Of a DNA stretch of 47,944 nt, positions 9,429-28,846 are shown one piece after another (within the stretch, counting starts at the first letter, position 1; each line of letters begins with the position of its first letter). The notes below the pieces were generated by a model. It was not told the DNA's origin. It saw only the letters and a program-made list of their open reading frames with translations, and ran no database searches. The stretch covers positions 195,692-243,635 of the forward strand of contig JAGMAD010000003.1 in the NCBI GenBank assembly GCA_023130975.1, in the 5' to 3' direction. Source of the DNA: Candidatus Parcubacteria bacterium. Lineage in GTDB: Bacteria > Patescibacteriota > Minisyncoccia > Minisyncoccales > JAGMDC01. The translations under genes and the position numbers were made by a program.

Positions 9429-10871
9429 ATGGCCCTTACTTCTCTTACTATTAGTCAAACTCATCAAGGATTAGTTAAAAAGAAATTCTCGGCTTTGGAA
9501 TTGACTAAGGAATATTTGAATAGAATAAAAAAAGAAGACAAAAAAATTCATTCCTTTTTAACGGTTTCTGAAAATTTGGCTTTTTCTCAAGCCCGGGAAA
9601 TAGATAAAAAAATTTCTAAAAAGGAAAATATAGATTTATTAGCTGGGATTCCTACTGTTATTAAAGATAATATAATGGTGGAGGATATTAAATGTACAGC
9701 TGCTTCAAAAATTTTAGAGAATTATATTGCTTGTTACGATGCTACAGTAATAGAAAAACTAAAGAAAGCGGGAACAGTAATTTTAGGCAAGACAAATTTA
9801 GATGAGTTTGCTATGGGTTCTTCCTGCGAAAATTCTGCCTTTGGAGCGACGAAAAATCCCTCTGATTTAAAACGAGTTACAGGTGGTTCTTCTGGCGGTT
9901 CAGCTGCAGCTGTGGCTGCTAATTTGTGCGGTTATGCTTTGGGTTCTGATACCGGTGGCTCTATCCGTCTGCCAGCATCATTTTGCGGGGTTGTTGGCTT
10001 GAAGCCGACTTATGGAACTGTTTCTCGTTACGGTTTAATTGCTTTTGCTTCTTCTTTAGATCAAATTGGGCCTATGACTGAAACAATTGAGGATTGTAAA
10101 ATTGTTTTTGATGTTATCAAGGGCTGGGATGAGATGGATTCTACCAGCATAAAGACTCAGTCACTCAGTCGCTCAGTCGCTAAATCACCAAGTGATTTAA
10201 AGATTGGCATTCCAAAGGAATATTTTGTAAAGGGAATGGATCCAGAAGTAGAAAAGCAGATTAAAAAAGCAATTAAAAAATATGAAGATGAAGGAGCAAA
10301 AATTATAGAGGTCTCTCTGCCTCACACAGAATATGCTCTGCCGGTTTATTATATTATTAGTAATTCAGAGGCAAGTGCTAATCTGGCCCGTTACGACGGA
10401 ATAAGATACGGAAAGTCAAAAGTCAAAAGTCAAAAGTCAAAAGTCAAAAGTTTATTAGATGTTTATTTAGAAAATAGGGGGCAAGGTTTTGGAGATGAGG
10501 TAAAAAGAAGAATAATGCTTGGAACCTATGCTTTATCTGCTGGTTATTATGATGCCTATTATTTAAAAGCTCAGAAAGTTAGAACCTTAATTAAAGAGGA
10601 TTTTGAAAATGTTTTCAAGAAAGTAGATGTTCTTTTGACCCCGGTTTCTCCTACTACTGCTTTTAAGATCGGAGAGAAAATTGATAACCCTTTATCAATG
10701 TATCTTTCTGATATTTTTACCATTTCAGTTAATTTAGCCGGCTTACCTGCTTTGTCTTTGCCTTGTGGTAAAGTTGGTAAACTGCCAGTGGGTCTACAAA
10801 TTATTGGTCAGCCATTTGAAGAAAAAAGAATCTTAGAGATAGGGAAAATTATAGAAGAAGTTAAAAATTAA
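9429..10871 (+). CDS. gatA: Asp/Glu-tRNA amidotransferase subunit A
   Basis: 480 aa. Amidase signature GGSSGGSAAAVAA...GSDTGGSIRLPASFCG. Confidence 0.93.
   Translation: MALTSLTISQTHQGLVKKKFSALELTKEYLNRIKKEDKKIHSFLTVSENLAFSQAREIDKKISKKENIDLLAGIPTVIKDNIMVEDIKCTAASKILENYIACYDATVIEKLKKAGTVILGKTNLDEFAMGSSCENSAFGATKNPSDLKRVTGGSSGGSAAAVAANLCGYALGSDTGGSIRLPASFCGVVGLKPTYGTVSRYGLIAFASSLDQIGPMTETIEDCKIVFDVIKGWDEMDSTSIKTQSLSRSVAKSPSDLKIGIPKEYFVKGMDPEVEKQIKKAIKKYEDEGAKIIEVSLPHTEYALPVYYIISNSEASANLARYDGIRYGKSKVKSQKSKVKSLLDVYLENRGQGFGDEVKRRIMLGTYALSAGYYDAYYLKAQKVRTLIKEDFENVFKKVDVLLTPVSPTTAFKIGEKIDNPLSMYLSDIFTISVNLAGLPALSLPCGKVGKLPVGLQIIGQPFEEKRILEIGKIIEEVKN
10412..10450 (+). repeat. Heptanucleotide tandem repeat (GTCAAAA x5) inside gatA
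   Basis: GTC recurs at 10415, 10422, 10429, 10436 and 10443. Translated as KSKVKSQKSKVKS. Confidence 0.9.
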
Positions 10872-10973
10872 AAGTTCAAAGTTCGTAGTCAAAGTTTTAA
10901 GTTAAAAGTTTTAATTCATAATTTTTCACTTTTCACTTTTAACTTTTAACTTGACCGAGCGAAGCGAGGGAAC
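10872..10973. repeat. Word-repeat palindromic spacer ending in the TTGACCGAGCGAAGCGAGGGAAC cassette
   Basis: AAAGTTCAAAGTT...GTTAAAAGTT is mirrored by CACTTTTAACTTTTAACTT. The cassette at 10951-10973 abuts the GTG start. Confidence 0.7.
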
Positions 10974-11489
10974 GTGGATTTTTCAAATCTAATTTCATAT
11001 TTAAGTTCAAACGAAATAAGCAAGACATTGTTCCATTTTCGGAATGCTTTTTTTCTTCTTTCTCTTTTCTTTTTCATAATTGTTCTTTCGCTTTTCTTAA
11101 AAACCAATTGGAAAAAATACGCTTTTATAGAAGATGCTGTTCATTTCTTCTTTTTTAGGCCTTATGGAATTAAGAAATTTACTAAGTCCTGGCAAAAAAT
11201 TGCTAAAAAGTTGAAAAGCGGCGATGAGTCAGAATATAAATTAGCCATTATTGAAGCAGATGAGATACTAAATGATATTTTAGAAAAAGTAGGGTATTCA
11301 GGAGAGACATTAGAAGAAAAAATAGATAAAGTGAGTTTAGTTGTTATTTCTAATAAAGAAGAAATTTTAGAAGCCCATAAGGTTAGGAGTAGCATTGTTT
11401 ATAATCCCAATTATAAAGTAGAATTAGAAGAAGCAAAAAAATTATTAGAAATTTATAGAAAAGCACTTACGGATTTAGGAATGCTGTAG
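10974..11489 (+). CDS. Hypothetical membrane-anchored protein
   Basis: 171 aa, GTG start. One N-terminal hydrophobic helix (FFLLSLFFFIIVLSLFL), then a helical charged domain. No family recognised. Confidence 0.6.
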   Translation: MDFSNLISYLSSNEISKTLFHFRNAFFLLSLFFFIIVLSLFLKTNWKKYAFIEDAVHFFFFRPYGIKKFTKSWQKIAKKLKSGDESEYKLAIIEADEILNDILEKVGYSGETLEEKIDKVSLVVISNKEEILEAHKVRSSIVYNPNYKVELEEAKKLLEIYRKALTDLGML

Positions 11490-11519
11490 GCACATAGTAC
11501 ATAGCACATAACATGGGGG

Positions 11520-11548
11520 TTGAATTTAGTTTAAAATTGAGATATGAT
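11520..11548 (+). promoter_or_regulatory. sigma70-like promoter for the tRNA cluster
   Basis: GGGGG-TTGAAT (11520-11525), 17 nt, TATGAT (11543-11548). Confidence 0.5.
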
Positions 11549-11606
11549 GGAGTATCAATAATATAGCAAGTCAGAGGCTTGATATATCACGCTAAAGCGT
11601 GTTATA

Positions 11607-11675
11607 GCGGGGTGGAGAAGTAGTATCTTGCCAGCCTCATAAGCTGGAGACCCAGGCGCAATTCCTGGCCCCGCA
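11607..11675 (+). tRNA. Degenerate tRNA-like sequence with CAU anticodon loop (possible pseudo-tRNA or atypical tRNA)
   Basis: Acceptor GCGGGGT/GCCCCGC. Anticodon arm CCAGC-CTCATAA-GCTGG. The D arm lacks GG and the T loop reads CGCAATT instead of TTCRANY. Confidence 0.35.
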
Positions 11676-11683
11676 ACTAGTTT

Positions 11684-11756
11684 GGCGGTGTAGCTCAGTG
11701 GTTAGAGCAGTAGAATCATAATCTACGTGTCGTGGGTTCGAATCCCTCCACCGCTA
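11684..11756 (+). tRNA. tRNA with CAU anticodon (elongator Met or lysidine-type Ile2)
   Basis: GGCGGTG-TA-GCTC-AGTGGTTA-GAGC-A-GTAGA-ATCATAA-TCTAC-GTGTC-GTGGG-TTCGAAT-CCCTC-CACCGCT-A. No three G-C pairs in the anticodon stem, so not an initiator. Confidence 0.85.
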
Positions 11757-11772
11757 CATAATTTAATTTTAT

Positions 11773-11845
11773 GGTCGCGTGGTGTAGCGGTTAACATGTC
11801 GCCCTGTCACGGCGAAGATCGTGGGTTCAAATCCCATCGCGACCG
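11773..11845 (+). tRNA. tRNA-Asp (GUC)
   Basis: GGTCGCG-TG-GTGT-AGCGGTTA-ACAT-G-TCGCC-CTGTCAC-GGCGA-AGATC-GTGGG-TTCAAAT-CCCAT-CGCGACC-G. Confidence 0.9.
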
Positions 11846-11885
11846 CCCAAAGAGTATTTTTTCAACACTTTCAATAAAAAAACAT

Positions 11886-11912
11886 TACTGGATTTATAGT
11901 CCAGTATTTTTT
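11886..11912 (+). terminator. Rho-independent terminator after the tRNA cluster
   Basis: TACTGGA-TTTATAG-TCCAGTA followed by TTTTTT. Confidence 0.7.
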
Positions 11913-11962
11913 GTTTTCCACAGTTGATTTTAAGTTTAAAATAAGTTATTATAAATATAATA

Positions 11963-12985
11963 ATGGATATAAAAACAATCAAAAAAGAGGTAAAAAAACA
12001 GATAAATTCAGCTGAAACTTTAAAAGATTTAGATGATATTTTTAAGAAATATCTGGGTAAAAAAGGCAAAATTACCCAGATTTTGCGTTCTTTAAAGGAC
12101 TTGTCAGAAAAACAAAAAAAAGAAACAGGTAAATTGGCTAATGAAATTAAGAAAGAATTAGAATCAGCTGTAAAAGAAAAAAAATATGTATTTCAATCTG
12201 CTGACTGGCTGGCAAGTAAATTTCAGGATATTTTTGATATTTCTGTTCCAAGCAAAAAACCATTAGTTGGTCATCTTCACCCGATTACTCTTGTTAGAAG
12301 AAAAGTTGAAGAAATTTTTCAGCAAATGGGTTTTTCCGTGGTTGAAGGTCCAGAAGTAGAAACTGAATGGTATAATTTTGATGCCTTAAATATTCCCAAA
12401 GACCATCCGGCTCGGGATGCCTGGGATACATTGTGGTTAAAACCTGAAAGTCAAAAGTTGTTATTAAGAACTCATACCTCACCAGTACAAATCAGATATA
12501 TGGAAAAGAATCAGCCGCCATTAAGGATTATTGTGCCTGGCAGGGCTTTCCGACATGAAGCCACTGATGCTTCTCATGATGTTCAGTTTTATCAATTAGA
12601 GGGATTGATGGTTGGCAAAGATATTTCAGTGGCTAATTTTAAAGCAATAGCAAAAGAATTTTTTCAAAGATTTTTTAATAAAGAGATTAAAGTACGATTG
12701 AGGCCCGGTTATTTTCCATTTACAGAGCCAAGTTTTGAGATAGATGTCCAATGTGTTATTTGTGGAGGTAAAGGTTGTTCGACTTGCAAGCAAACCGGCT
12801 GGCTCGAGCTTTGGCCTGGTGGAATGGTTCATCCTAATGTATTAAAAGCAGTTGGCTACAACCCAAAATTCTGGCAGGGTTTTGCCTTCGGAATGGGTTT
12901 AGACCGTTTAGTGATGATGAAATACAAAATTAACGATATAAGGCTTTTTTATGGCGGCGATCTTAGATTTTTACAACAATTTTGA
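11963..12985 (+). CDS. pheS: Phenylalanyl-tRNA synthetase alpha subunit
   Basis: 340 aa. HPITLVRRKVEEIF, class II motifs (RTHTSPVQIR, FRHEATDASH, GFAFGMGLDRLVM). Confidence 0.93.
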   Translation: MDIKTIKKEVKKQINSAETLKDLDDIFKKYLGKKGKITQILRSLKDLSEKQKKETGKLANEIKKELESAVKEKKYVFQSADWLASKFQDIFDISVPSKKPLVGHLHPITLVRRKVEEIFQQMGFSVVEGPEVETEWYNFDALNIPKDHPARDAWDTLWLKPESQKLLLRTHTSPVQIRYMEKNQPPLRIIVPGRAFRHEATDASHDVQFYQLEGLMVGKDISVANFKAIAKEFFQRFFNKEIKVRLRPGYFPFTEPSFEIDVQCVICGGKGCSTCKQTGWLELWPGGMVHPNVLKAVGYNPKFWQGFAFGMGLDRLVMMKYKINDIRLFYGGDLRFLQQF

Positions 12986-18863: not shown

Positions 18864-18894
18864 TCGCCAACCCAATTTTAAAAATTTGTTTTCT

Positions 18895-19416
18895 ATGATT
18901 ATGAGGCCTACTAAAGACCAATATTATCTCAATATTGCCAAGCAAGTAGCTCAAAGGTCAACTTGTTTTCGGGTTAGGTTTGGGGCAATTATTGTTAGAG
19001 ATGACCAGATTATTGCTACTGGCTATGTTGGTGCACCAAGGAAAACTAAGGACTGTTTTGAAAGGGGAAATTGTTTAAGAGACCAATTAAAAATTCCCCA
19101 TGGCCAAAAATACGAGCTTTGCCGAAGCGTTCATAGCGAACAAAACGCTATTATCAATGCTGCTCGAGCTGGAGTAAGTTTGCTTGGCGGGGATATGTTT
19201 ATTTATGCGGAAAATAAAGAGAGAGAAGCAATAGATGCTTTTCCTTGTTTTATTTGTAAAAAGATGATTATTAATGCTGGCTTAAATAGAGCAGTTTGCT
19301 CAACAAGCGATGGTAAATACAAGGTTTTTAATATCCAGGATTGGGTTCGCGATTGGCAGGAAAGAGACATCTTAGATGACCAGCATCAATACGGAAAGGA
19401 CCAGAATAGGGGTTGA
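18895..19416 (+). CDS. comEB: Deoxycytidylate (dCMP) deaminase, ComEB-type
   Basis: CDA zinc motifs HSEQNAI and PCFICKKMIINAG. Size about 170 aa. Start ATG 18895 or 18901. Confidence 0.85.
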   Translation: MIMRPTKDQYYLNIAKQVAQRSTCFRVRFGAIIVRDDQIIATGYVGAPRKTKDCFERGNCLRDQLKIPHGQKYELCRSVHSEQNAIINAARAGVSLLGGDMFIYAENKEREAIDAFPCFICKKMIINAGLNRAVCSTSDGKYKVFNIQDWVRDWQERDILDDQHQYGKDQNRG

Positions 19417-19433
19417 CCCCCCTTTTTGTTTTT
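19409..19433 (+). terminator. Short GC hairpin plus T-run overlapping the comEB stop
   Basis: GGGG-TTGA-CCCC followed by CCTTTTTGTTTTT. Confidence 0.4.
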
Positions 19434-19461
19434 GATACTGTAAAATTACAGCACATAAATA
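19432..19461 (+). promoter_or_regulatory. Possible promoter of the purine-rich operon
   Basis: TTGATA (19432-19437), 18 nt, TAAATA (19456-19461). Weak match. Confidence 0.3.
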
Positions 19462-19487
19462 GTTAAATAATTGAAGAGGGAAAGAAA

Positions 19488-19745
19488 ATGTATGAAGAAG
19501 AAAAAGTATGGGAAGAAATAAAATATTGTATAGAGATAGGAAGACGAAACGATATACAAAGATGTTTGGAGAACAAGCTACAGACAAGAAGGCGGAGAGC
19601 AATAGAAATGAAGAAGGCATTGGACAAAGAATATTTGGAAATAGAGCAAATAGAGGAAGTATTGGAGAAACTACAAGAAGGGGTTGTTGTAAAAAACACA
19701 GAACAAGAGGCAGAGCGAAGAATAGTAGGAGCAATACAGGTGTAA
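19488..19745 (+). CDS. Small charged helical protein (85 aa), operon gene 1
   Basis: SD GAGGGAAAGAAAATG. MYEEEKVWEEIKYCIEIGRRNDIQRCLENKLQTRRRRAIEMKK... No family recognised. Confidence 0.5.
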   Translation: MYEEEKVWEEIKYCIEIGRRNDIQRCLENKLQTRRRRAIEMKKALDKEYLEIEQIEEVLEKLQEGVVVKNTEQEAERRIVGAIQV

Positions 19746-19768
19746 TATAAATAAAAGGAGCAATAGAA

Positions 19769-19972
19769 ATGGGAGAGAAAGAAAAAATAGACGTTGTGAT
19801 AGTTTGGAAGAAAGAAAAACCGGAGAAGAAAGGAGAATCAGAGAATACAGGAATTTCAAAGACAATCAAGGATATTTCAGAAGAGAAACTTAAGAGTCTT
19901 CTAAAAAGCAAGAAGTGCAATGGCTTTCAGGTGGTTTGGAAATGGGAAAAAGCAGGTGAGAAAAATGTCTGA
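19769..19972 (+). CDS. Small Lys/Glu-rich protein (67 aa), operon gene 2
   Basis: SD AAGGAGCAATAGAAATG. Its stop overlaps the next start (ATGTCTGA). Confidence 0.5.
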   Translation: MGEKEKIDVVIVWKKEKPEKKGESENTGISKTIKDISEEKLKSLLKSKKCNGFQVVWKWEKAGEKNV

Positions 19973-20117
19973 AGAAAGAAAGCCATTTGAGTCAGATATA
20001 GAAAGAATTGAAAACAGGAACAAAAAGTGGATGGAAATACAAAAAGAGCCACATGGTAGAACATTAATGAGATTAAAACTGATATTCGGATTCTCAGAGA
20101 GAGAAGAAAAAGAATAA
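19965..20117 (+). CDS. Small protein (50 aa), operon gene 3
   Basis: SD AGGTGAGAAAAATG. MSEERKPFESDIERIENRNKKWMEIQKEPHGRTLMRLKLIFGFSEREEKE. The track ORF from 19920 is an upstream extension without an SD. Confidence 0.45.
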   Translation: MSEERKPFESDIERIENRNKKWMEIQKEPHGRTLMRLKLIFGFSEREEKE

Positions 20118-20134
20118 AAAGGAGGTGATAGAAA

Positions 20135-20875
20135 ATGGAATTAAAAGAATTAGAAAAAAGAGTACGCCTTTTTTTAAAAGGAGAGTATGCAACGGACAAG
20201 ATATACGATCAACTATACAGAATAGCGGTTCTCGATTCTCAGACTGGCGATTTGGCAAAATTTGTCTATCATGACCCGAAATACAATCCAGAAGCTCGAA
20301 TCGTTGGCACTTTCGAAGACGAAGTTTCAATTTCTGGTGAGGCAGTGTGTCATCTAATAGCTCTGATGATGAGCAGGGGAATAGATTTATCCGATGCTCT
20401 GGAAGCAGGAATTAAAAAATTGGAAGAAAAAGATGGGTACAAGAAAAAGGGTGAAGTTATAGAGATAGATAACATAACGACGCTAAAAGGATACCGAACG
20501 GCCTCTGGTATAGTTGAAGGAATAGCAATAGTAATACTGTTCGCCTCAGAAAAAAAGTTAGAGAAGTTGCTAACGAATTTGAAATTGAAAGATGAAAAGA
20601 AAATACTTGTGACAGAAAGTTTAAGCGCCCATTCAGTTTCAGTTGGTTTTTTGAGAGCAATAAATTTAGTAGGAATAGTAACCAATCAGGGAGGGAGTAC
20701 TTCACACGGAGCAATAATAGCCAGAGAGATGGGAATTCCTTGTGTTTCAGGGACAGAAGTTTCAGAAACAGAAAAAGCGACAAAGATAATTCATAGTGGT
20801 GACAAAATTATAGTAAATGGAAACGCAGGAGAAGTAGTTTTAATAAAGAGAGAAGTAATTTTGAGAAAGAGGTGA
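20135..20875 (+). CDS. Fusion protein: MazG-like all-alpha NTP-pyrophosphohydrolase-fold N-domain plus PEP-utilising-enzyme mobile (phosphohistidine swivel) domain
   Basis: SD AAGGAGGTGATAGAAAATG. N-half: LDSQTGDLAKFV...GEAVCHLIALMMSRGIDLSDALEAGIKKLEEK (MazG-like, acidic motif partly substituted). C-half: ILVTESLS...GIVTNQGGSTSHGAIIAREMGIPCVSG...GDKIIVNGNAGEV (PF00391 pattern; His codon at 20705-20707). Confidence 0.75.
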   Translation: MELKELEKRVRLFLKGEYATDKIYDQLYRIAVLDSQTGDLAKFVYHDPKYNPEARIVGTFEDEVSISGEAVCHLIALMMSRGIDLSDALEAGIKKLEEKDGYKKKGEVIEIDNITTLKGYRTASGIVEGIAIVILFASEKKLEKLLTNLKLKDEKKILVTESLSAHSVSVGFLRAINLVGIVTNQGGSTSHGAIIAREMGIPCVSGTEVSETEKATKIIHSGDKIIVNGNAGEVVLIKREVILRKR

Positions 20876-20880
20876 TAGAA

Positions 20881-22197
20881 ATGGTAAAAATAGGTTTTAT
20901 AGAAGATGAGCCGATTATACTCGCAGCAGTTGGAGTAAAAATCTCCCAAACGCCATTTGAACAGGGGAGTATTCAAGATATTTACGAGGAATGTCGGGGA
21001 AGCGAGTTAGAAAAGGAAGCAGGCAAGCTAAAAGAAGCTGGAAATTTTGAAGGAGCTAAAAAATTGAAACAAGAGGTTGAGAGACGCATAGAGAATTCTA
21101 AAAAATTAGTCAATGAGATAATGATAAAGCACAGACATCTAATCCTCGGTGATTTCCTGCCCTACACGGTAGCATTAGAGGATATTTCACGGCTGGCAGC
21201 GATTTATCTCTGGCGAAATGTGAATGTCTTGAACTTCGTATTCGGCGCTGGTATAGAAGCATCATTTAGAGTGATAAAGCCAAACAGATATAACAAAGCA
21301 GTTAGTGACTTAGGTAAAATAGCATTTGAGGCATACGAGAAGGCGGTTGATCTCGGAGTTCCAGAACAAGACGCAAGGTATATGTTGCCAGAAGGAATAC
21401 TAACCAGAATGATATTTTCTAGTACGCCTCGTTATTTAGGGAAACTGGCAAATTCTTCGAAGAATGCACCATTATCAGAATTCAAAGAAATCGGTAAACA
21501 AATTGAGACACTGGTTAAGGAAAAATTTGGCTTAGAACTACTTCAAGAAACATTACCTTCGGAATGGAAATTCTGGGGACAGGAAAAAATAAAAGAAGGA
21601 ATTTCTCTTGACTATCAAGGAAAGATTCATTCTTTTTCCTTGAATATGGGAGTAAAAGGAAGCTTAGCGATGTATGCTCAACTAGTGCGACAGAGATTGT
21701 TACTATGTGATGTAGAACCATTAGAAGGAATAAGCAAAAAAGGAAGATTCGTTGTTCCTTTTACCTTTCCAAGAGCAACAAGAAAAGATTACCAAGAAAT
21801 AGCCAGTCAGGCAAAGCAAAAGCAGATAGAGTCAATAGAAAGACATGAACAGGATTTCGTTTATTACCTTTTACTTGGACAAGAGGCTGAAGCAATAATA
21901 TATGGGAAAGGTGCTACAGTGATTGAAACTTCACAGGCAAGAAGCGAGGGTGTGGCTCAATGGGAAATAAGGAACCAAGTAGGAATTCCAATAACCAGAG
22001 AATTGGCAAAATATAAAGAGCTGGAAACAGAAATTGGTCCCAGATGCTGGAGAGAAAAACAGTGCATAGAACCCGGAACTTTTAAAACAAAGAAGAGTAT
22101 CTGTAAAGCATTTTTTCAAGCAGAGGGAAATTGGAAAGGAACTTTGAAAGAACTACTTGATACCTTAACTGAACATTACGAGACTTTCAGGGTGTAA
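20881..22197 (+). CDS. Tandem double ThyX-like (flavin-dependent thymidylate synthase fold) protein with a divergent signature
   Basis: SD AGAGGTGATAGAAATG (alternative GTG at 20872). First half aligns by eye to T. maritima ThyX (KHRHLILGDFLPYTVALEDISRLAAIYLWRN..., VPEQDARYMLPEGILTRMIFSS). Second half repeats the pattern (SLAMYAQLVRQRLLL..., SQARSEGVAQWEIRNQ). Confidence 0.7.
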   Translation: MVKIGFIEDEPIILAAVGVKISQTPFEQGSIQDIYEECRGSELEKEAGKLKEAGNFEGAKKLKQEVERRIENSKKLVNEIMIKHRHLILGDFLPYTVALEDISRLAAIYLWRNVNVLNFVFGAGIEASFRVIKPNRYNKAVSDLGKIAFEAYEKAVDLGVPEQDARYMLPEGILTRMIFSSTPRYLGKLANSSKNAPLSEFKEIGKQIETLVKEKFGLELLQETLPSEWKFWGQEKIKEGISLDYQGKIHSFSLNMGVKGSLAMYAQLVRQRLLLCDVEPLEGISKKGRFVVPFTFPRATRKDYQEIASQAKQKQIESIERHEQDFVYYLLLGQEAEAIIYGKGATVIETSQARSEGVAQWEIRNQVGIPITRELAKYKELETEIGPRCWREKQCIEPGTFKTKKSICKAFFQAEGNWKGTLKELLDTLTEHYETFRV

Positions 22198-22270: not shown

Positions 22271-22377
22271 TCTTTAAAATAGAGACCTTGACTCCTTGCG
22301 TTTTTTTTCTAATTATGTATAATAAAATAACAGTTGTTTTAAATAAAAATAAAAAATAGGGGGTGAGATTAAAAAAA

Positions 22378-22737
22378 ATGGCAACAGAAATCAAGAATCG
22401 GTTTTTATCAGCGATATTACAAATAAAAGAAATTAGAGGGGAGCAAGCAGAGGAAAAAGTTAAGGAGGCACTTAAAGAACTTCAAAAGGAGGGGAAAATC
22501 GAAAATTTCGGCCAGACCATGAAATTTAGCATAGAGGATCTAACCGGTATAGATTTTATCATTTTTTGGAAAGCTAAGAAAAAAATATTACTTCAAGTCA
22601 AAGGATATCCCTTTGAAAACAAAAGAAAATATCGAAAAAGGAATATTCAAGTGATTATGGCCTTGCCGGAAGAAAATGTATCAGAGGTAAAAAGAAAAAT
22701 TTTTGCTATCATAGAAAGAAAAACAAAAAGAAAATAA
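22378..22737 (+). CDS. Small basic hypothetical protein (119 aa from ATG 22378)
   Basis: AGGGGGTGA SD region upstream. E...D(GIDFIIF)...LLQVK arrangement faintly reminiscent of PD-(D/E)xK nucleases. Lys/Arg-rich tail. Confidence 0.55.
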   Translation: MATEIKNRFLSAILQIKEIRGEQAEEKVKEALKELQKEGKIENFGQTMKFSIEDLTGIDFIIFWKAKKKILLQVKGYPFENKRKYRKRNIQVIMALPEENVSEVKRKIFAIIERKTKRK

Positions 22738-22814: not shown

Positions 22815-23354
22815 ATGATATTAGGGGTGAAAGAATTACTAAAATTAGTAAAGGAGAGAAAGATAGTAGAAAATCTTTCAGAAAGAGAACTCAAGAATCC
22901 AGAAGGAGCAGGTTTTGATTTTCGGCTCGGAGAGATTTATGAAATTTCTGGAAAAGGATTTTTAGGCATAGACGAAAGAGAGACGCCAAAAACAAAGCTA
23001 TTAGCAAAATATGAGCCAAAAAAGAAACAAAATTTTATTTTTGAACCGGGTAAATACTACTTAATGAAAACAATAGAAGAAGTGAATTTACCGGAAAATA
23101 TTTTATGTCTTCTGCGACAAAGATCAACTTTGCATAGGTCGGGAATAATGATTTTTACTGGCAATGTTTCACCAGGATATCAAGGTGTCTTAACCTTTGG
23201 GATTGTGAATTTAGGTCCTTGTGATATAAAAATTGAACTTGGCGCAAGAGTAGTTCATGCTATGTTCCATGAAGTAAAAGGAGAAACCAATTTGTACCGA
23301 GGCCAGTGGCAGGGCGGCCGGGTCTCAACTGGTAAAAAAGAAAAACAAATTTAA
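22815..23354 (+). CDS. dcd: dCTP deaminase / dUTPase-superfamily protein (Dcd-like)
   Basis: 179 aa. GAGFDFRLG..., LRQRSTLHRSGI, SPGYQGVLTFGIVNLG patterns of the trimeric dUTPase/Dcd fold. Confidence 0.75.
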   Translation: MILGVKELLKLVKERKIVENLSERELKNPEGAGFDFRLGEIYEISGKGFLGIDERETPKTKLLAKYEPKKKQNFIFEPGKYYLMKTIEEVNLPENILCLLRQRSTLHRSGIMIFTGNVSPGYQGVLTFGIVNLGPCDIKIELGARVVHAMFHEVKGETNLYRGQWQGGRVSTGKKEKQI

Positions 23355-24056: not shown

Positions 24057-24986
24057 ATGAGTTATTTTCCAACCGTCGGCCTCGAGATCCATGCCGAATT
24101 AAAAACAAAATCAAAAATGTTTTGCTCTTGTGTCAATAACCCGGATGAAAAACAACCAAATGTTAATGTTTGCCCTGTTTGTTTATCGCATCCAGGGACC
24201 TTGCCGGTGATAAATAGAGATGCAGTGAGAAAAGTAATTAAAACTGGCTTGGCTTTAAATTGTCAAATTCCTCAATATTCTAAATTTGATAGAAAAAACT
24301 ACTTCTATCCCGATCTACCTAAAGGGTATCAAATCTCTCAACTTTATATGCCGTTTTGTGAAAATGGATTTTTAGAAATTAATTGCAGTCCCGAAGGAGA
24401 ACAAGTTCCCTACGGGACAGGCAGGAAAATCAGAATAAGAGAAATTCATTTAGAAGAAGATACAGGAAAATTAATTCACCCAGAAGGAGCCGATTATAGT
24501 TTAGTGGATTTTAATCGGGCAGGTGTTCCTCTAATGGAATTGGTTACTGAGCCGAATATTCATTCAGCAAAAGAAGCGAGGAAATTTGCTGAAGAATTCC
24601 AATTAATTTTAAGATATCTTGATGTTTCTTATGCCAATATGGAAAAGGGACAATTACGCATTGAAGTGAATATTTCACTTCAATGCAAATCCAAAATCCA
24701 AATGCCAAAATCCAAATCAAATCCAAAATCCAAAATCCAAAATCCAAAACTGGGAACTAAAGTAGAAATTAAAAACTTGAATTCTTTTCGAGCAGTGGAA
24801 AAGGGGATTGACTATGAAATTGAAAGGCAATCGGAAATTTTAGAAAAAGGAGAAAAAATTGTTCAGGAAACGCGGGGTTGGCATGATACAAAACAAATTA
24901 CCATAAGCCAGAGAGAAAAAGAGGAAGCTCATGATTATAGATATTTTCCAGAACCAGACCTGCCGATGCTTCACATTGGAAGTTGA
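24057..24986 (+). CDS. gatB: Asp/Glu-tRNA amidotransferase subunit B, N-terminal (catalytic cradle) segment of a split gene
   Basis: [25 protein letters not shown]...[13 protein letters not shown]...[11 protein letters not shown], then stop TGA at 24984-24986. Confidence 0.85.
24686..24750 (+). repeat. AATCCAAA octamer-type tandem repeat inside gatB
   Basis: CAAATCCAAAATCCAAATGCCAAAATCCAAATCAAATCCAAAATCCAAAATCCAAAATCCAAAAC, translated as [21 protein letters not shown]. Confidence 0.85.
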
Positions 24987-24990
24987 AACT

Positions 24991-25653
24991 ATGAATATCA
25001 ATATTAATAAAATTAAATCAGAGATTTCTGAACTACCTCAAGCCAAAAGAAAGAGGTTTAAGGCAGAGTATAATTTATCAGATAAAGAGATAGAAGTTTT
25101 TGTTCAAAATAAAAATCTTGGAGAATATTTTGAAAAAGTAATGTCAGAATTAAGAAACTGGGTAAAAGAAGCAGAGATAAAGAGAGAAGTTGAAAGAGAT
25201 GAATTTTTAAAATTAGCAAAATTTTGCACTAGTTATCTAATTACTGATCTTCAGGGATTATTAAAAGGTGGTGATGTTGCCCCCCACCACTTTTTTGAAA
25301 AAAGTGGTGGGGGGTTGATCACCCCAGAAAACTTTGCTGAATTTATCACTTTAGTTTATAAAAAAGAAATTTCCTCAAAAATCGCTAAAATAGTTTTAAG
25401 CGAAATGTTTAAAACCAGTGCTGACCCGTCGCACATTATTAAAGAAAAGGCATTGAGCCAGGTAACCGATGAATTAGAAATTGAGAAAGTTATAAAGAAC
25501 ATAATTTCAAAAAATCCCAAACCAGTTGAAGATTATAAAAAAGGAAAACAAAACGCTTTACAATTTTTAGTAGGCCAGGTAATGGCAGCTACCAGAGGCA
25601 AAGCCAAACCAGATATAGTTAACAACATTCTAAAAAGAGTTCTTTCAAAATAA
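24991..25653 (+). CDS. gatB: Asp/Glu-tRNA amidotransferase subunit B, C-terminal (helical plus YqeY-like tail) segment
   Basis: ELPQAKRKRFKAEYNLSDKEIEVF...GEYFEKV...ISSKIAKIVLSEM...ALQFLVGQVMAATRGKAKP. In the +1 frame relative to the N-segment. This frame is open from 24931. Confidence 0.82.
   Translation: MNININKIKSEISELPQAKRKRFKAEYNLSDKEIEVFVQNKNLGEYFEKVMSELRNWVKEAEIKREVERDEFLKLAKFCTSYLITDLQGLLKGGDVAPHHFFEKSGGGLITPENFAEFITLVYKKEISSKIAKIVLSEMFKTSADPSHIIKEKALSQVTDELEIEKVIKNIISKNPKPVEDYKKGKQNALQFLVGQVMAATRGKAKPDIVNNILKRVLSK
25280..25314 (+). repeat. Perfect 17+1+17 nt palindrome inside the gatB C-segment
   Basis: CCCCCCACCACTTTTTT-G-AAAAAAGTGGTGGGGGG, translated within GGDVAPHHFFEKSGGGL. Confidence 0.9.
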
Positions 25654-26028: not shown

Positions 26029-27396
26029 TTAGCCTCTTTTTTTTACCAATTTACCTTTCAATCCCCAGGGGATAGCGTTAGTTACTTTAACCTTCACGAA
26101 TTTCCCAATTAACTTTTTATTAACTGGTTTAAATTTTATTGTTTTATATTCCCTTGTTTTTCCAATCAGCCAATCCTTTCTTTCATATTCTGGCAAAACT
26201 TCTACCATTTTTCCAATATATTTTTTATTATTTTCTAAAGCAGTTTTTTTAAGAACTTCAGTCAAAACCTTATCTCTTCTTTCCTTTTCTTGATGAGATA
26301 CACTATCTTTCATTTTTGCTGCCGCAGTACCTGGTCTTGGAGAATACTGGGCAATATAAGCCATATCCGGTTTGATTGCTTTGAGAAGTTTTATAGTGTT
26401 TTCAAATTGCTTTTTTGTTTCCCCTAGAAAACCCACAATTATATCAGTAGATAAAGTAACATTAGGGATTTTTTTTCTGATTTTTTTAACTAAATTTTTA
26501 TAATCTTTAACAATATAAGGCCGATTCATTTCTTTTAAAATTTCATTATCTCCTGACTGGATAGGCAAACTGATATATTTTGTTACTTTCTCGCACTCAG
26601 CAATTGTTCTAATCAATTCGTCAGAAAAATCTTTGGGATGCGAAGAAGTAAATCTAATCCAAAAATCCCCGGGAATCTTATTTATCATTTTAAGTAATTT
26701 CGCGAAATTTGTAATATTAAAATTGCCATAGGTGCCACCTATGGCAATTTTTGTGTTTTGTGATTTATAACTATTCACATTTTCTCCGAGTAACCATATT
26801 TCCTTGTATCCCTTTTTAGCTAAATCTTTTATTTCTTTTAAAATATCTTTTGCAGGTCTTGAGATTTCTTGCCCCCGAGTATAGGGAACTACACAATATG
26901 TACAAAAATTATTACAGCCAATAATAATTGGGACATAAGCCGAAAATTTAGTTCTATATTTCGGCTGGGTTTTTAGGTAAGCACAATCTAATCTATTGAG
27001 GTTCAACCTCAATAGAGAGGTTGAACCTCTTAATATTGGATAGTAAAAGTATTTATCTTTTTTCAAAAATTTCTTCCAATGAGGTAAACTTTTAATAGAT
27101 AGAATATAGTCAAATTTTTCTTTGAATTTTCTTAGATCTGACTTTAAAACACAACCAGTCAGTAAAGTTTTTAATTTAGGATTTCTCCTTTTTAATTTCA
27201 AAAAATTTTTTACTTGGCCGTAAACTCTATCAACAGCTGATTGTCGAACAGAACACATATTAACCACAATCAAATTCGCCTCATCCATTTTTGAAGCTGG
27301 CTTATAGCTTATATCCTCCAAAACCGAAGCGATTCGTTCCAAGTCAGAGAAATTCATCTGACAGCCATAAGTAATGATATAATATTTTTTCATCAT
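26029..27396 (-). CDS. miaB: Radical-SAM methylthiotransferase, MiaB/RimO family
   Basis: 455 aa. YIITYGCQMNFSDLE (MTTase N-domain), CNNFCTYCVVPYTRG (radical SAM CxxxCxxC), C-terminal TRAM. Confidence 0.88.
   Translation of the reverse strand: MMKKYYIITYGCQMNFSDLERIASVLEDISYKPASKMDEANLIVVNMCSVRQSAVDRVYGQVKNFLKLKRRNPKLKTLLTGCVLKSDLRKFKEKFDYILSIKSLPHWKKFLKKDKYFYYPILRGSTSLLRLNLNRLDCAYLKTQPKYRTKFSAYVPIIIGCNNFCTYCVVPYTRGQEISRPAKDILKEIKDLAKKGYKEIWLLGENVNSYKSQNTKIAIGGTYGNFNITNFAKLLKMINKIPGDFWIRFTSSHPKDFSDELIRTIAECEKVTKYISLPIQSGDNEILKEMNRPYIVKDYKNLVKKIRKKIPNVTLSTDIIVGFLGETKKQFENTIKLLKAIKPDMAYIAQYSPRPGTAAAKMKDSVSHQEKERRDKVLTEVLKKTALENNKKYIGKMVEVLPEYERKDWLIGKTREYKTIKFKPVNKKLIGKFVKVKVTNAIPWGLKGKLVKKRG
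26993..27030. repeat. Nested palindromes read in-frame in miaB
   Basis: CTATTGAGG-TTCAA-CCTCAATAG, plus two 13-nt palindromes GAGGTTCAACCTC and GAGGTTGAACCTC. Encodes GSTSLLRLNLNRL on the minus strand. Confidence 0.8.
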
Positions 27397-27477: not shown

Positions 27478-28689
27478 TTATTTACACACTCCCTTATAAT
27501 CAATTTCTACTTCCGCTAAATTGGCAAAACAGGTATTACTATAAGTTTTTCCATCCTTTCCACAAACTGGGTTCCATAAAGTAATACAAGCCTGGGGTTT
27601 TGTTAGTTTTTGAGGGATTTGAATCTCTGACGGAATTACACATTTAAAAGAAACAATACAACCGTTTTCGTCTCTTTCTAAAAGAATTCTTCCGTTGCCG
27701 CAAAAGCCGAGAGGTGGTTTTTCAATGTCAATTTCGGGACAATTTCTGTCTATTTCTTCAATTTTTTCTAAGATATTTTCTCTTACTTCCATTATTTTTT
27801 GCCTCAGGACAGGTTTTTCTTGTAATTCTGATTTTAGATTTTCCAAAATTTCAAGATGTATTTCTTTTTCTCCGGAAATTTTGTCAATATATTCCTTGAA
27901 TCTTTCTTGATTCTCTGGAGACATTTTTTCTAAATCGCCTTGCAATCTTTTGAGCGAATTTTCTTGAGCTTTTCTAATTGCTTCTTTTGCCTGTTCAGGC
28001 ACCTTTTCTTCCAGCTTTAGTAAAACTTCTAAATTCTTAAAGTTCTTATATTTACTTCCTTTTATTTCTGCCATATTTTTCTCTAATCGTTCAGAAATGT
28101 TATCTTCTCTATCTTCTAATTTTGTCATAACCTCACCAAATCTTTCAAGGTGTCTCTCTCGGGCTTGTTCTATTTTTTCAAATACTTCAGTCGGAACCTG
28201 AGTTTGTAATTTTTCAAGAATTCTATAATGAAGAGTTTGATGTTTAATAAACTTATCTAAAAAAGCACCAACTTTTGGATTTGCTTCTGCCTTTTCTTTT
28301 ATTTTTTCAGATGCCTCCTTAATTTTATCCATTTCATTTTGATAATTTTCTAAGCTATTTTCTATAATATCTGGATCTTTTACTTCTTCAATCATCTTTT
28401 TTACTTCAATTAATCTTTCGTTAGCAAATTTTGATTTCAATTCGGCTTTTTTGATTGGATTAAAAGCAAAGAAAGACCGAATTCCTCTGCCCCAATCTTT
28501 TAAGAAATAAAAAGGACTATCCGGTAATAAAGTTGGTTCTTCAATATCCAGATCTTCTGCCTGAATATTCTCATCAAGATTTACTGCTTCAGTTGCATTT
28601 TCTTGTGCTAAACTTACTGAAGCAAACCCTAATCCCAGACAAAGAGCGATTAAGATTAGGCATATAAAAGATTTGGTTGAGTAAAACAT
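27478..28689 (-). CDS. Secreted/anchored DUF5667-like coiled-coil protein with a C-terminal Kazal-like domain
   Basis: Signal/anchor MFYSTKSFICLILIALCLGLGFASVSLAQ. LPDSPFYFLKDWGRGI (DUF5667-like). C-terminus ACITLWNPVCGKDGKTYSNTCFANLAEVEIDYKGVC (Kazal pattern). Start set at ATG 28689. Confidence 0.8.
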   Translation of the reverse strand: MFYSTKSFICLILIALCLGLGFASVSLAQENATEAVNLDENIQAEDLDIEEPTLLPDSPFYFLKDWGRGIRSFFAFNPIKKAELKSKFANERLIEVKKMIEEVKDPDIIENSLENYQNEMDKIKEASEKIKEKAEANPKVGAFLDKFIKHQTLHYRILEKLQTQVPTEVFEKIEQARERHLERFGEVMTKLEDREDNISERLEKNMAEIKGSKYKNFKNLEVLLKLEEKVPEQAKEAIRKAQENSLKRLQGDLEKMSPENQERFKEYIDKISGEKEIHLEILENLKSELQEKPVLRQKIMEVRENILEKIEEIDRNCPEIDIEKPPLGFCGNGRILLERDENGCIVSFKCVIPSEIQIPQKLTKPQACITLWNPVCGKDGKTYSNTCFANLAEVEIDYKGVCK

Positions 28690-28846
28690 CTTTTTTAAAT
28701 CCCAAGCACCAAGCACCAAATTCCAAATGAGCACCAATTTTCAAAATTCAAATGATTAAAATTTATTTAGAGTTTTAGAAATTGGGATTTGGGATTTGTT
28801 TGGGATTTGGGATTTGTAATTTGGAATTTACACTGTGAAGTAGTGT
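28690..28846. repeat. Word-repeat palindromic spacer (AAATCCCAA/CCAAATTCCAAAT versus TTGGGATTT/ATTTGGAATTT)
   Basis: Directly visible inverted word blocks on either side of about 28760. Confidence 0.7.

Follow-up and report, generated by a model that had tools for sequence, protein, structure and literature searches.

Flavin-dependent thymidylate synthases (ThyX or FDTS) are drug targets and mechanistically unusual flavoenzymes; three identical subunits share each active site, so that roles are hard to assign. The canonical enzyme, as represented by Thermotoga maritima TM0449 (PDB 1O26), by the Mycobacterium tuberculosis protein (2AF6/3GWC) and by those of PBCV-1 and Helicobacter pylori, is a homotetramer with four active sites and four flavin adenine dinucleotides (FAD), dependent on NADPH and methylenetetrahydrofolate for dTMP synthesis, and the reviews, PMC6514825 among them, give the homotetramer only. 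In the M. tuberculosis and H. pylori enzymes each site is built from three subunits (PMC6514825, section 3.1). Subunit A contributes the RHR motif and R199 (R78-H79-R80 and R174 in T. maritima); subunit B contributes S71 and R190, the arginine of the FAD phosphate (R165 in T. maritima); and subunit C contributes R87, the arginine of an 'ISR' motif, together with S105, R107 and Y108 (S88, R90 and Y91 in T. maritima) (PMC6514825). The PBCV-1 structure is concordant, one monomer supplying Gln75 and Arg182 and a different one Ser88 (PMC3498832). Here we describe a gene from Candidatus Parcubacteria bacterium (contig JAGMAD010000003.1, positions 195,692 to 243,635; this stretch of 47,944 nucleotides is referred to below as the window) whose 438-residue product is two fused, diverged ThyX domains.

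The tandem protein resembles canonical ThyX in its fold, its Pfam family, its combined set of contact residues and its metabolic context. It differs in carrying two diverged domains in one polypeptide with no single-domain RHRX7S signature, in a second half that lacks the N-terminal helices, in the replacement of Y91 by Val and of H79 by Gln, and in an extra Cys-rich tail. As judged from the alignments, the A role and the B and C roles are permanently divided in the tandem protein, so only two of four sites could be complete. No description of a tandem, duplicated or pseudo-dimeric ThyX, of a ThyX with an Fe-S cluster or zinc, or of ThyX in the candidate phyla radiation (CPR) was found in the searchable literature, a scope outside which most subscription journals fall. 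We regard this as a known kind of enzyme in an architecture that is new as far as the searchable literature shows; the databases already name homologues 'FAD-dependent thymidylate synthase' (others are 'hypothetical').

Two ThyX domains in one polypeptide

The gene is a single open reading frame (ORF) that begins with ATG at 20881, and the sequence GAGGTGA, a Shine-Dalgarno element, lies 6 nt 5' to this codon. Homologues of the 438-residue protein share the N-terminal MVK as their start point. Because of the placement of the Shine-Dalgarno element and this common start, the GTG at 20872 is unlikely to initiate translation.

The whole protein matches Pfam Thy1 (PF02511) in two stretches (E 6.7e-17, 62.3 bits against a cut-off of 24.8). 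When the halves were searched separately, half 1 scored 42.1 bits (E 1.1e-10) and half 2 scored 24.5 bits (E 2.6e-5), slightly under the cut-off. Among sequences from PDB, the family profile matched ThyX proteins with half 1 and none with half 2. Direct comparison of the two halves with hhalign, using the window family only, was not significant (E 0.25), and half 2 aligned weakly with the lone T. maritima sequence (E 0.007). A profile was also built from 90 single-domain ThyX sequences gathered in this analysis. Against this profile, half 1 of the family gave E 1.7e-15 (98.5%) and half 2 gave E 1.8e-13 (98.0%), with the half-2 alignment extending through the C-terminal Cys motif; for the wider tandem superfamily the values were 2.4e-52 and 1.4e-42, respectively. 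On this profile evidence the halves are too diverged to recognize each other directly, and the duplication becomes visible only via a third profile.

The structure predicted by AlphaFold2 (AF2) agrees with this. The model of the whole protein is confident, also across the linker (mean predicted local distance difference test, pLDDT, 93.9; predicted template modelling score, pTM, 0.90), as is that of half 2 alone (pLDDT 90.4), and the order strand-helix-strand ... helix-helix-strand-helix-helix occurs twice in the whole-protein model. Half 2 begins at the first strand, without the N-terminal helical region that bears the GH(x)S..EH segment and the equivalent of T. maritima H53. With either model, whole protein or half 2, the top 50 chains that Foldseek listed from PDB were solely ThyX (prob 1.00). 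The whole model gave poor template modelling (TM) scores and a root mean square deviation (rmsd) of 16-17 A because the alignments straddle both domains; half 2 was therefore rerun alone, with a query TM-score (TMq) of 0.47-0.56 and rmsd of about 3.2-3.8 A over 140-150 columns. An earlier reading of the DNA, made from the letters alone (the sequence-only reading), had proposed a tandem ThyX at 20881-22197 and allowed that a profile alignment might reveal one ThyX domain only. Pfam, hhalign and Foldseek support both domains, and both halves match the single-domain profile.

A word-indexed search yielded 136 homologues, most of them 405-440 residues long and 45-76% identical to the window protein, from Patescibacteria (CPR: Parcubacteria, Nealsonbacteria), Aenigmatarchaeota and Omnitrophota. 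This range of identity over 136 proteins indicates a family under selection. When 1.84 billion cluster representatives were searched with a profile, 1157 matches were obtained at E <= 0.001; among the best 150 of these, most are 420-520 residues long with two matched stretches, and the tandem architecture thus appears to be that of a broad superfamily with several subgroups. Judged from these searches, tandem ThyX is widespread in CPR bacteria, DPANN archaea and anaerobes. This breadth refutes the notion that two adjacent thyX genes have been joined by a frameshift or an assembly error, or that the ORF is a decaying pseudogene, an idea to which we give almost no credence. Errors or frameshifts do occur on the contig, in that the neighbouring gatB looks split into two overlapping ORFs, but the identical single-ORF architecture recurs in over 120 full-length homologues that were assembled independently, the exact protein is present on 8 assembled contigs, the AF2 model keeps its confidence through the linker, and both halves have invariant residues.

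The sequence-only reading had also suggested placing both halves in a ThyX phylogeny. In a crude neighbour-joining tree (BLOSUM distances, midpoint root) in which single-domain ThyX was included, each half makes up a pure clade, one with 108/108 half 1s and one with 120/120 half 2s, and the two clades are about equidistant from single-domain ThyX. This topology fits a single old duplication followed by specialization of the halves.

Division of the active-site residues

Conservation was counted over 132 diverse tandem proteins, taken as the superfamily, and over the 123-member family of the window protein; positions and counts are collected in Table 1. Half 1 keeps H86, R104 of an 'ISR' motif, the loop E126-A-S128-F-R130, R166 and R184. 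In half 2 are found Q267, R270-Q271-R272, R354 and the AQWEIR segment that follows it. Taken jointly, the residues of the ThyX contact set for dUMP and FAD (R78, R80, S88, R90, R147, R165, R174 and H53 in T. maritima numbering) are complete, nearly invariant and split over the halves, the exceptions to the full set being Tyr91, which is Val, and the RHR His, which is Gln. Essentially no member has in half 1 an equivalent of R174, the helix motif AQWEI or the third Arg of RHR; the Ser-x-Arg loop is lacking from half 2. By these counts the losses in the two halves are complementary and nearly invariant over the 132 relatives, and thus are no quirk of one gene.

The sequence-only reading placed WRN at 21211-21219, RQR at 21688-21696 and AQWEI at 21955-21969, and all three translate so. 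It took WRN as the RHR of half 1. The letters W111-R-N are indeed there, but the register has to be moved by one residue, to R112-N113-V114, by the spacing of ISR followed by 7 residues; the same spacing, ISR then 7 residues then RHR, occurs in half 1 of the relative P0157 (ISRLASFLLVRHR) and in half 2 of the window protein (GSLAMYAQLVRQR). That neither half has an intact RHRX7S holds good: in half 1, 13 residues separate R112-N-V from S128, and in half 2, where R270-Q-R is found, Pro takes the place of the Ser. AQWEI does survive only in half 2.

It is quite likely that an insertion of about 7 residues has displaced the Ser/Arg loop of half 1 and that the catalytic Ser and Arg have not been lost. 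S128 and R130 were equated with S88 and R90 because a multiple alignment with intermediates brings them together and because they hold an analogous strand position in the AF2 model. The intermediates form a subgroup series that runs from GVGTEMSLRYV via FTVKSRRYV to the canonical SQRYV.

When this conservation is mapped onto the published subunit roles, the A-role residues are found to be kept solely in half 2 and the B- and C-role residues solely in half 1. The asymmetric composite site that had been suggested from complementary motif loss thus gains support, both from conservation over the 132 proteins and from the fit to three subunit roles. Two chains would assemble as a pseudo-tetramer with two copies of each half, in which either half 2 could make one complete site with the participation of both half 1 domains. 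The remaining two sites, for which half 1 would be needed in the A role, would be vestigial. We infer from the residue distribution that the dimer is a pseudo-tetramer with two complete sites rather than four; two active sites and two FAD are predicted per dimer. The tandem form would then amount to a natural dissection of the active-site roles, and it predicts a two-site enzyme.

Alternatively, all four pseudo-sites might work, or the monomer might have an intramolecular site, with the degenerate motifs being tolerated substitutions. The first Arg of RHR is kept in half 1 (R112, 117/123), some tandem relatives such as P0157 have RHR in both halves, and the two-site assembly is itself something that we infer. 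We nevertheless consider this alternative unlikely, in view of the residues missing throughout from half 1, the absence from half 2 of both the Ser-x-Arg loop and the N-terminal helical region with H53, and the three subunits that the canonical site needs.

The C-terminal cysteine cluster

The most unusual conserved feature of the protein, absent from the sequence-only reading, is a cluster of Cys residues near its C terminus (C389, C395 and C408). Such a tail has not been described for the solved ThyX proteins that the searches brought up (those of T. maritima, M. tuberculosis, H. pylori and PBCV-1, with a few more). In the superfamily a further Cys is frequent at position 356, two residues past the R174-type Arg in the motif R-x-C-x-x-AQWEIR (111/132). 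In the window clade position 356 is usually Glu, as it is in the window protein (E356), and a Cys is found instead at position 276, in a remodelled loop of half 2. Cys356 is present in 10/14 family members without C276 and in 17/109 with it (Fisher p = 3e-5, kinship ignored), and this inverse covariation looks like a ligand swap.

A putative four-ligand site made of C389, C395 and C408 plus C276 or residue 356 probably binds a metal. The pLDDT of the AF2 model drops to 68-78 in the tail; low values are common in metal loops modelled without their metal. The predicted site would tie the half-2 helix that bears R354 to the C-terminal tail.

A degenerate DNA pattern for R.C..AQWEIR, scanned over one genome per GTDB species, gave at least 120 loci. 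From the listed loci, 113 motif-bearing ORFs were recovered, of which most encode single-domain ThyX of about 230-290 residues with a complete VRHRxxSxxxxSQRY and only five are tandem. Among the matches listed, 88/90 ORFs of single-domain size have a C-x4-9-C-x5-10-C tail. The Cys4 site therefore appears to be an older trait of a large ThyX clade that gave rise to the tandem form. Both tandem halves have their best profile match in these single-domain proteins, which share with the tandem superfamily the R-x-C-x-x-AQWEIR helix and the GPxC-x4-9-C-x5-10-C tail; they differ in having one domain and the complete signature, and presumably are ordinary homotetramers. The window clade is set apart from them by the usual Glu in place of the helix Cys and by C276. 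In the four-Cys form of the single-domain proteins (loci L010-L129) the motif reads R-x-C-x-x-AQWEIR ... GPxC-x4-6-CPEGKxxCG. They derive chiefly from groups rich in anaerobes, among the bacteria Clostridia (with Clostridium fallax DSM 2631, L053, and Ruminococcoides intestinihominis, L068), Halanaerobium (L070), Coriobacteriia, Synergistetes, Negativicutes and Chloroflexi, and among the archaea Thermoplasmatota, Bathyarchaeia and Methanomassiliicoccales.

The metal could be Zn in a structural role, or it could belong to an Fe-S cluster; the absence of CxxC pairs and the occurrence in anaerobes lead us to lean slightly toward Fe-S. It is a more speculative and on balance doubtful step to suppose that the Cys4 site holds a redox-active [4Fe-4S] cluster by the R174-type helix, in tandem ThyX as in the single-domain ThyX of anaerobes, and gives electrons of a ferredoxin type entry to FAD instead of, or besides, NADPH. 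On that supposition each chain of the tandem form would hold one FAD and one cluster, making it a natural 'two-site' ThyX; if true, this would identify the route of the physiological reductant for ThyX in anaerobes and would also give a natural heterodimer-like system that separates the catalytic roles of the three subunits. The tail suggests an undescribed metal cofactor which, if redox-active, would change the view of flavin reduction in ThyX.

One subgroup of tandem ThyX (P0161, P0187, P0203, P0229, P0250, P0253, P0254 and P0258, from candidate division WOR-3 and others) is without any Cys tail and has a canonical RLREDxHAQWEIR helix with a His178 equivalent. Chlamydial ThyX was considered as a possible characterized tandem form; the cluster names obtained for this Cys-less subgroup were 'WOR-3' and generic ones only. 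The subgroup may represent secondary loss of the tail or an earlier branch.

Gene context and predicted reaction

The gene order in the window is GyrB - NusG - L11 - dCMP deaminase - ... - tandem ThyX - ... - dCTP deaminase/dUTPase - DeoC - GatB. Four relatives (loci L001, L006, L007 and L132) share the synteny from GyrB through NusG and L11 to dCMP deaminase, the last being conserved as a neighbour in all four. Their ThyX genes lie in the following orders: dCMP deaminase - ThyX - (132 aa) - SHMT (serine hydroxymethyltransferase) - FolD in L001; dCMP deaminase - kinase - DCD - SHMT - ThyX - thymidylate kinase - ... - DeoC - GatB in L006; dCMP deaminase - thymidylate kinase - ThyX - SHMT - GatB in L007; and dCMP deaminase - ThyX in L132. 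SHMT regenerates methylenetetrahydrofolate (CH2-H4folate), the deaminases supply dUMP and thymidylate kinase (Tmk) consumes dTMP. The operon partners of the relatives thus form a dTMP cycle, and ordinary thymidylate synthesis is indicated for this reason. A second ThyA or ThyX was not detectable within the 48-kb window. In our estimate the product of the gene is probably the flavin-dependent thymidylate synthase of this small-genome bacterium (dUMP + CH2-H4folate + reductant -> dTMP + H4folate), in the form of a fused and diverged ThyX pair.

Several observations weigh against this assignment. The position of T. maritima Tyr91 is V131 in the window clade (107/123), and the T. maritima mutant Y91A is more than 100-fold slower (PMC8316439). 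The RHR His is Gln (Q271) in the window protein. Direct profile alignments put EASFRVIKP, the segment with S128 and R130, on the next strand (T. maritima YEFYIP). The protein scores 31.1 bits with the NCBIfam equivalog TIGR02170 (thyX), for which the cut-off of 87.9 is not reached. Lastly, no biochemical work on any tandem member was found in the searchable literature.

Some of these features would also suit a ThyX-fold enzyme with another chemistry or substrate, such as a UMP or dCMP C5-methylase or a hydroxymethylase, in which remodelled motifs reflect new specificity; the sequence-only reading had likewise allowed for a chemistry other than dUMP methylation. The model for such an enzyme is PolB, reportedly a single-domain ThyX-like UMP C5-methylase of polyoxin biosynthesis in which altered loops change substrate specificity. 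Like PolB, the tandem protein has a ThyX fold with altered loops. In addition to the Y91 and H79 replacements and the low equivalog score, RHRX7S is broken in both halves, and the predicted extra metal site could support other redox chemistry. However, the Arg and Ser residues that contact dUMP are all kept in trans, the relatives' operon partners (SHMT, FolD, dCMP deaminase, dCTP deaminase and thymidylate kinase) belong to the dTMP cycle, no other thymidylate synthase is seen nearby, and the gene lies in a housekeeping region (GyrB-NusG-L11) with no sign of a biosynthetic cluster, whereas PolB belongs to a secondary-metabolite cluster. A different chemistry therefore seems quite unlikely, and this part of the sequence-only reading is not sustained. 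Its fold, its match to the family model, its set of residues and its context make the tandem protein a ThyX; the RHRX7S signature and TIGR02170 mark it as atypical. Many CPR bacteria and DPANN archaea seem to have tandem ThyX as their sole thymidylate synthase, and metabolic reconstructions of these groups are affected by its escaping the strict thyX equivalog model.

Table 1. Tandem ThyX gene, its domains and conserved residues, and two neighbouring genes. Counts are for the superfamily (of 132) and the window family (of 123); Tm, T. maritima; Mtb, M. tuberculosis.
Feature	Coordinates	Strand	Correspondence or role	Conservation or evidence
Tandem ThyX gene, 438 aa + stop	20881..22197	+		Pfam Thy1 E 6.7e-17; 136 homologues; Shine-Dalgarno
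Half 1, residues 1-216	20881..21528	+	Full-length ThyX domain with 'B' and 'C' role residues	Pfam Thy1; PDB ThyX sequence matches; hhalign
Helical insertion, residues 41-68, SELEKEAGKLKEAGNFEGAKKLKQEVER	21001..21084	+	Lineage-specific	Helix in AF2 model; missing in 35/36 aligned homologues (sole carrier P0048)
H86	21136..21138	+	Tm H53 (folate/NADPH side of site); half 1	129/132, 123/123
R104 of 'ISR'	21190..21192	+	Mtb R87 (dUMP from subunit C); half 1	77/132, 123/123
R112-N113-V114	21214..21222	+	Degenerate RHR; half 1	Register by ISR + 7 residues; R112 117/123
E126-A-S128-F-R130	21256..21270	+	Substrate loop, Tm E86/S88/R90; half 1	S128 and R130 each 131/132, 123/123
R166	21376..21378	+	Tm R147 (DARY motif), aligned to Tm VAR147IVLP; half 1	131/132, 118/123
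R184	21430..21432	+	Tm R165 / Mtb R190 (FAD phosphate, subunit B role); half 1	119/132, 123/123
Inter-domain linker, residues 217-239	21529..21597	+		No regular secondary structure in AF2 model
Half 2 core, residues 240-375	21598..22005	+	Truncated ThyX domain with 'A' role residues	Pfam; hhalign; Foldseek
Q267...R270-Q271-R272	21679..21696	+	Tm Q75 and R78-H79-R80; half 2	R270 131/132, 123/123; R272 130/132, 123/123; position 267 Q 76 / H 54 of 132, Q 119/123; position 271 H 72, Q 36, N 13, E 9 of 132
C276	21706..21708	+	Candidate fourth metal ligand in window clade; remodelled half-2 loop	109/123
R354, E356, A359-QWEIR364	21940..21972	+	R354 = Tm R174 (dUMP activator); half 2	R354 132/132, 123/123; AQWEIR >=84% at each position (of 132)
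Cys-rich tail GPRC389WREKQC395IE397PGTFKTKKSIC408K	22036..22107	+	Predicted metal ligands	C389, C395, C408 invariant in family (123/123); 118-123 of 132
dCMP deaminase, 5' of ThyX	18886..19416	+	dUMP supply	Pfam dCMP_cyt_deam_1 E 6.9e-18
dCTP deaminase / dUTPase family, 3' of ThyX	22815..23354	+	dUMP/dUTP supply	Pfam DCD E 3.4e-23; TIGR02274 90.4 bits

Two other ORFs that flank the tandem gene were considered as parts of the system and rejected. The 124-residue ORF between ThyX and the dCTP deaminase (22363-22737) is not conserved between relatives; it has only weak matches (MCM4 winged helix, E 2e-4; NERD, E 0.07) and is unrelated to the 132-residue ORF at the equivalent place in L001 and L132. 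Directly 5' to ThyX, at 20135-20875, with its stop 6 nt ahead of the ThyX ATG, is a gene for a 246-residue protein in which an unrecognised N-terminal domain of about 120 residues, with no PDB or Pfam match, is joined to a stand-alone phosphoenolpyruvate (PEP)-utilizer mobile (phosphohistidine) domain. This gene is no conserved partner of ThyX in the relatives.

The 0.7 kb between the dCMP deaminase gene and the gene that follows it (19417-20134) is purine-rich, and its only ORFs are short and rich in Lys and Glu (85, 67 and 65 residues); no family or structure match was found for them. Tmk, DCD or SHMT genes occupy this place in the relatives, and the stretch may be a decayed gene. Further 3', at 24057-25653, gatB is present as two overlapping ORFs, 24057-24986 (GatB_N) and 24931-25653 (GatB_Yqey); in L006 and L007 it is a single gene of 482-483 residues, and a frameshift, whether a sequencing error or a real disruption, is the likely cause of the split in the window.

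In the CPR relative L007, a 732-residue protein (10056-12254) unites a MiaB-like radical-SAM methylthiotransferase (UPF0004 - Radical_SAM - TRAM) and a MiaA-type isopentenyltransferase (IPT/IPPT) in one chain; its window counterpart, at 26029-27396, comprises the MiaB-like part only. At 27478-28737 the window encodes a 419-residue protein with DUF5667 and, at the C terminus, a protease-inhibitor domain of the Kazal type, unusual in bacteria, and L007 has a DUF5667 protein at the matching relative position.

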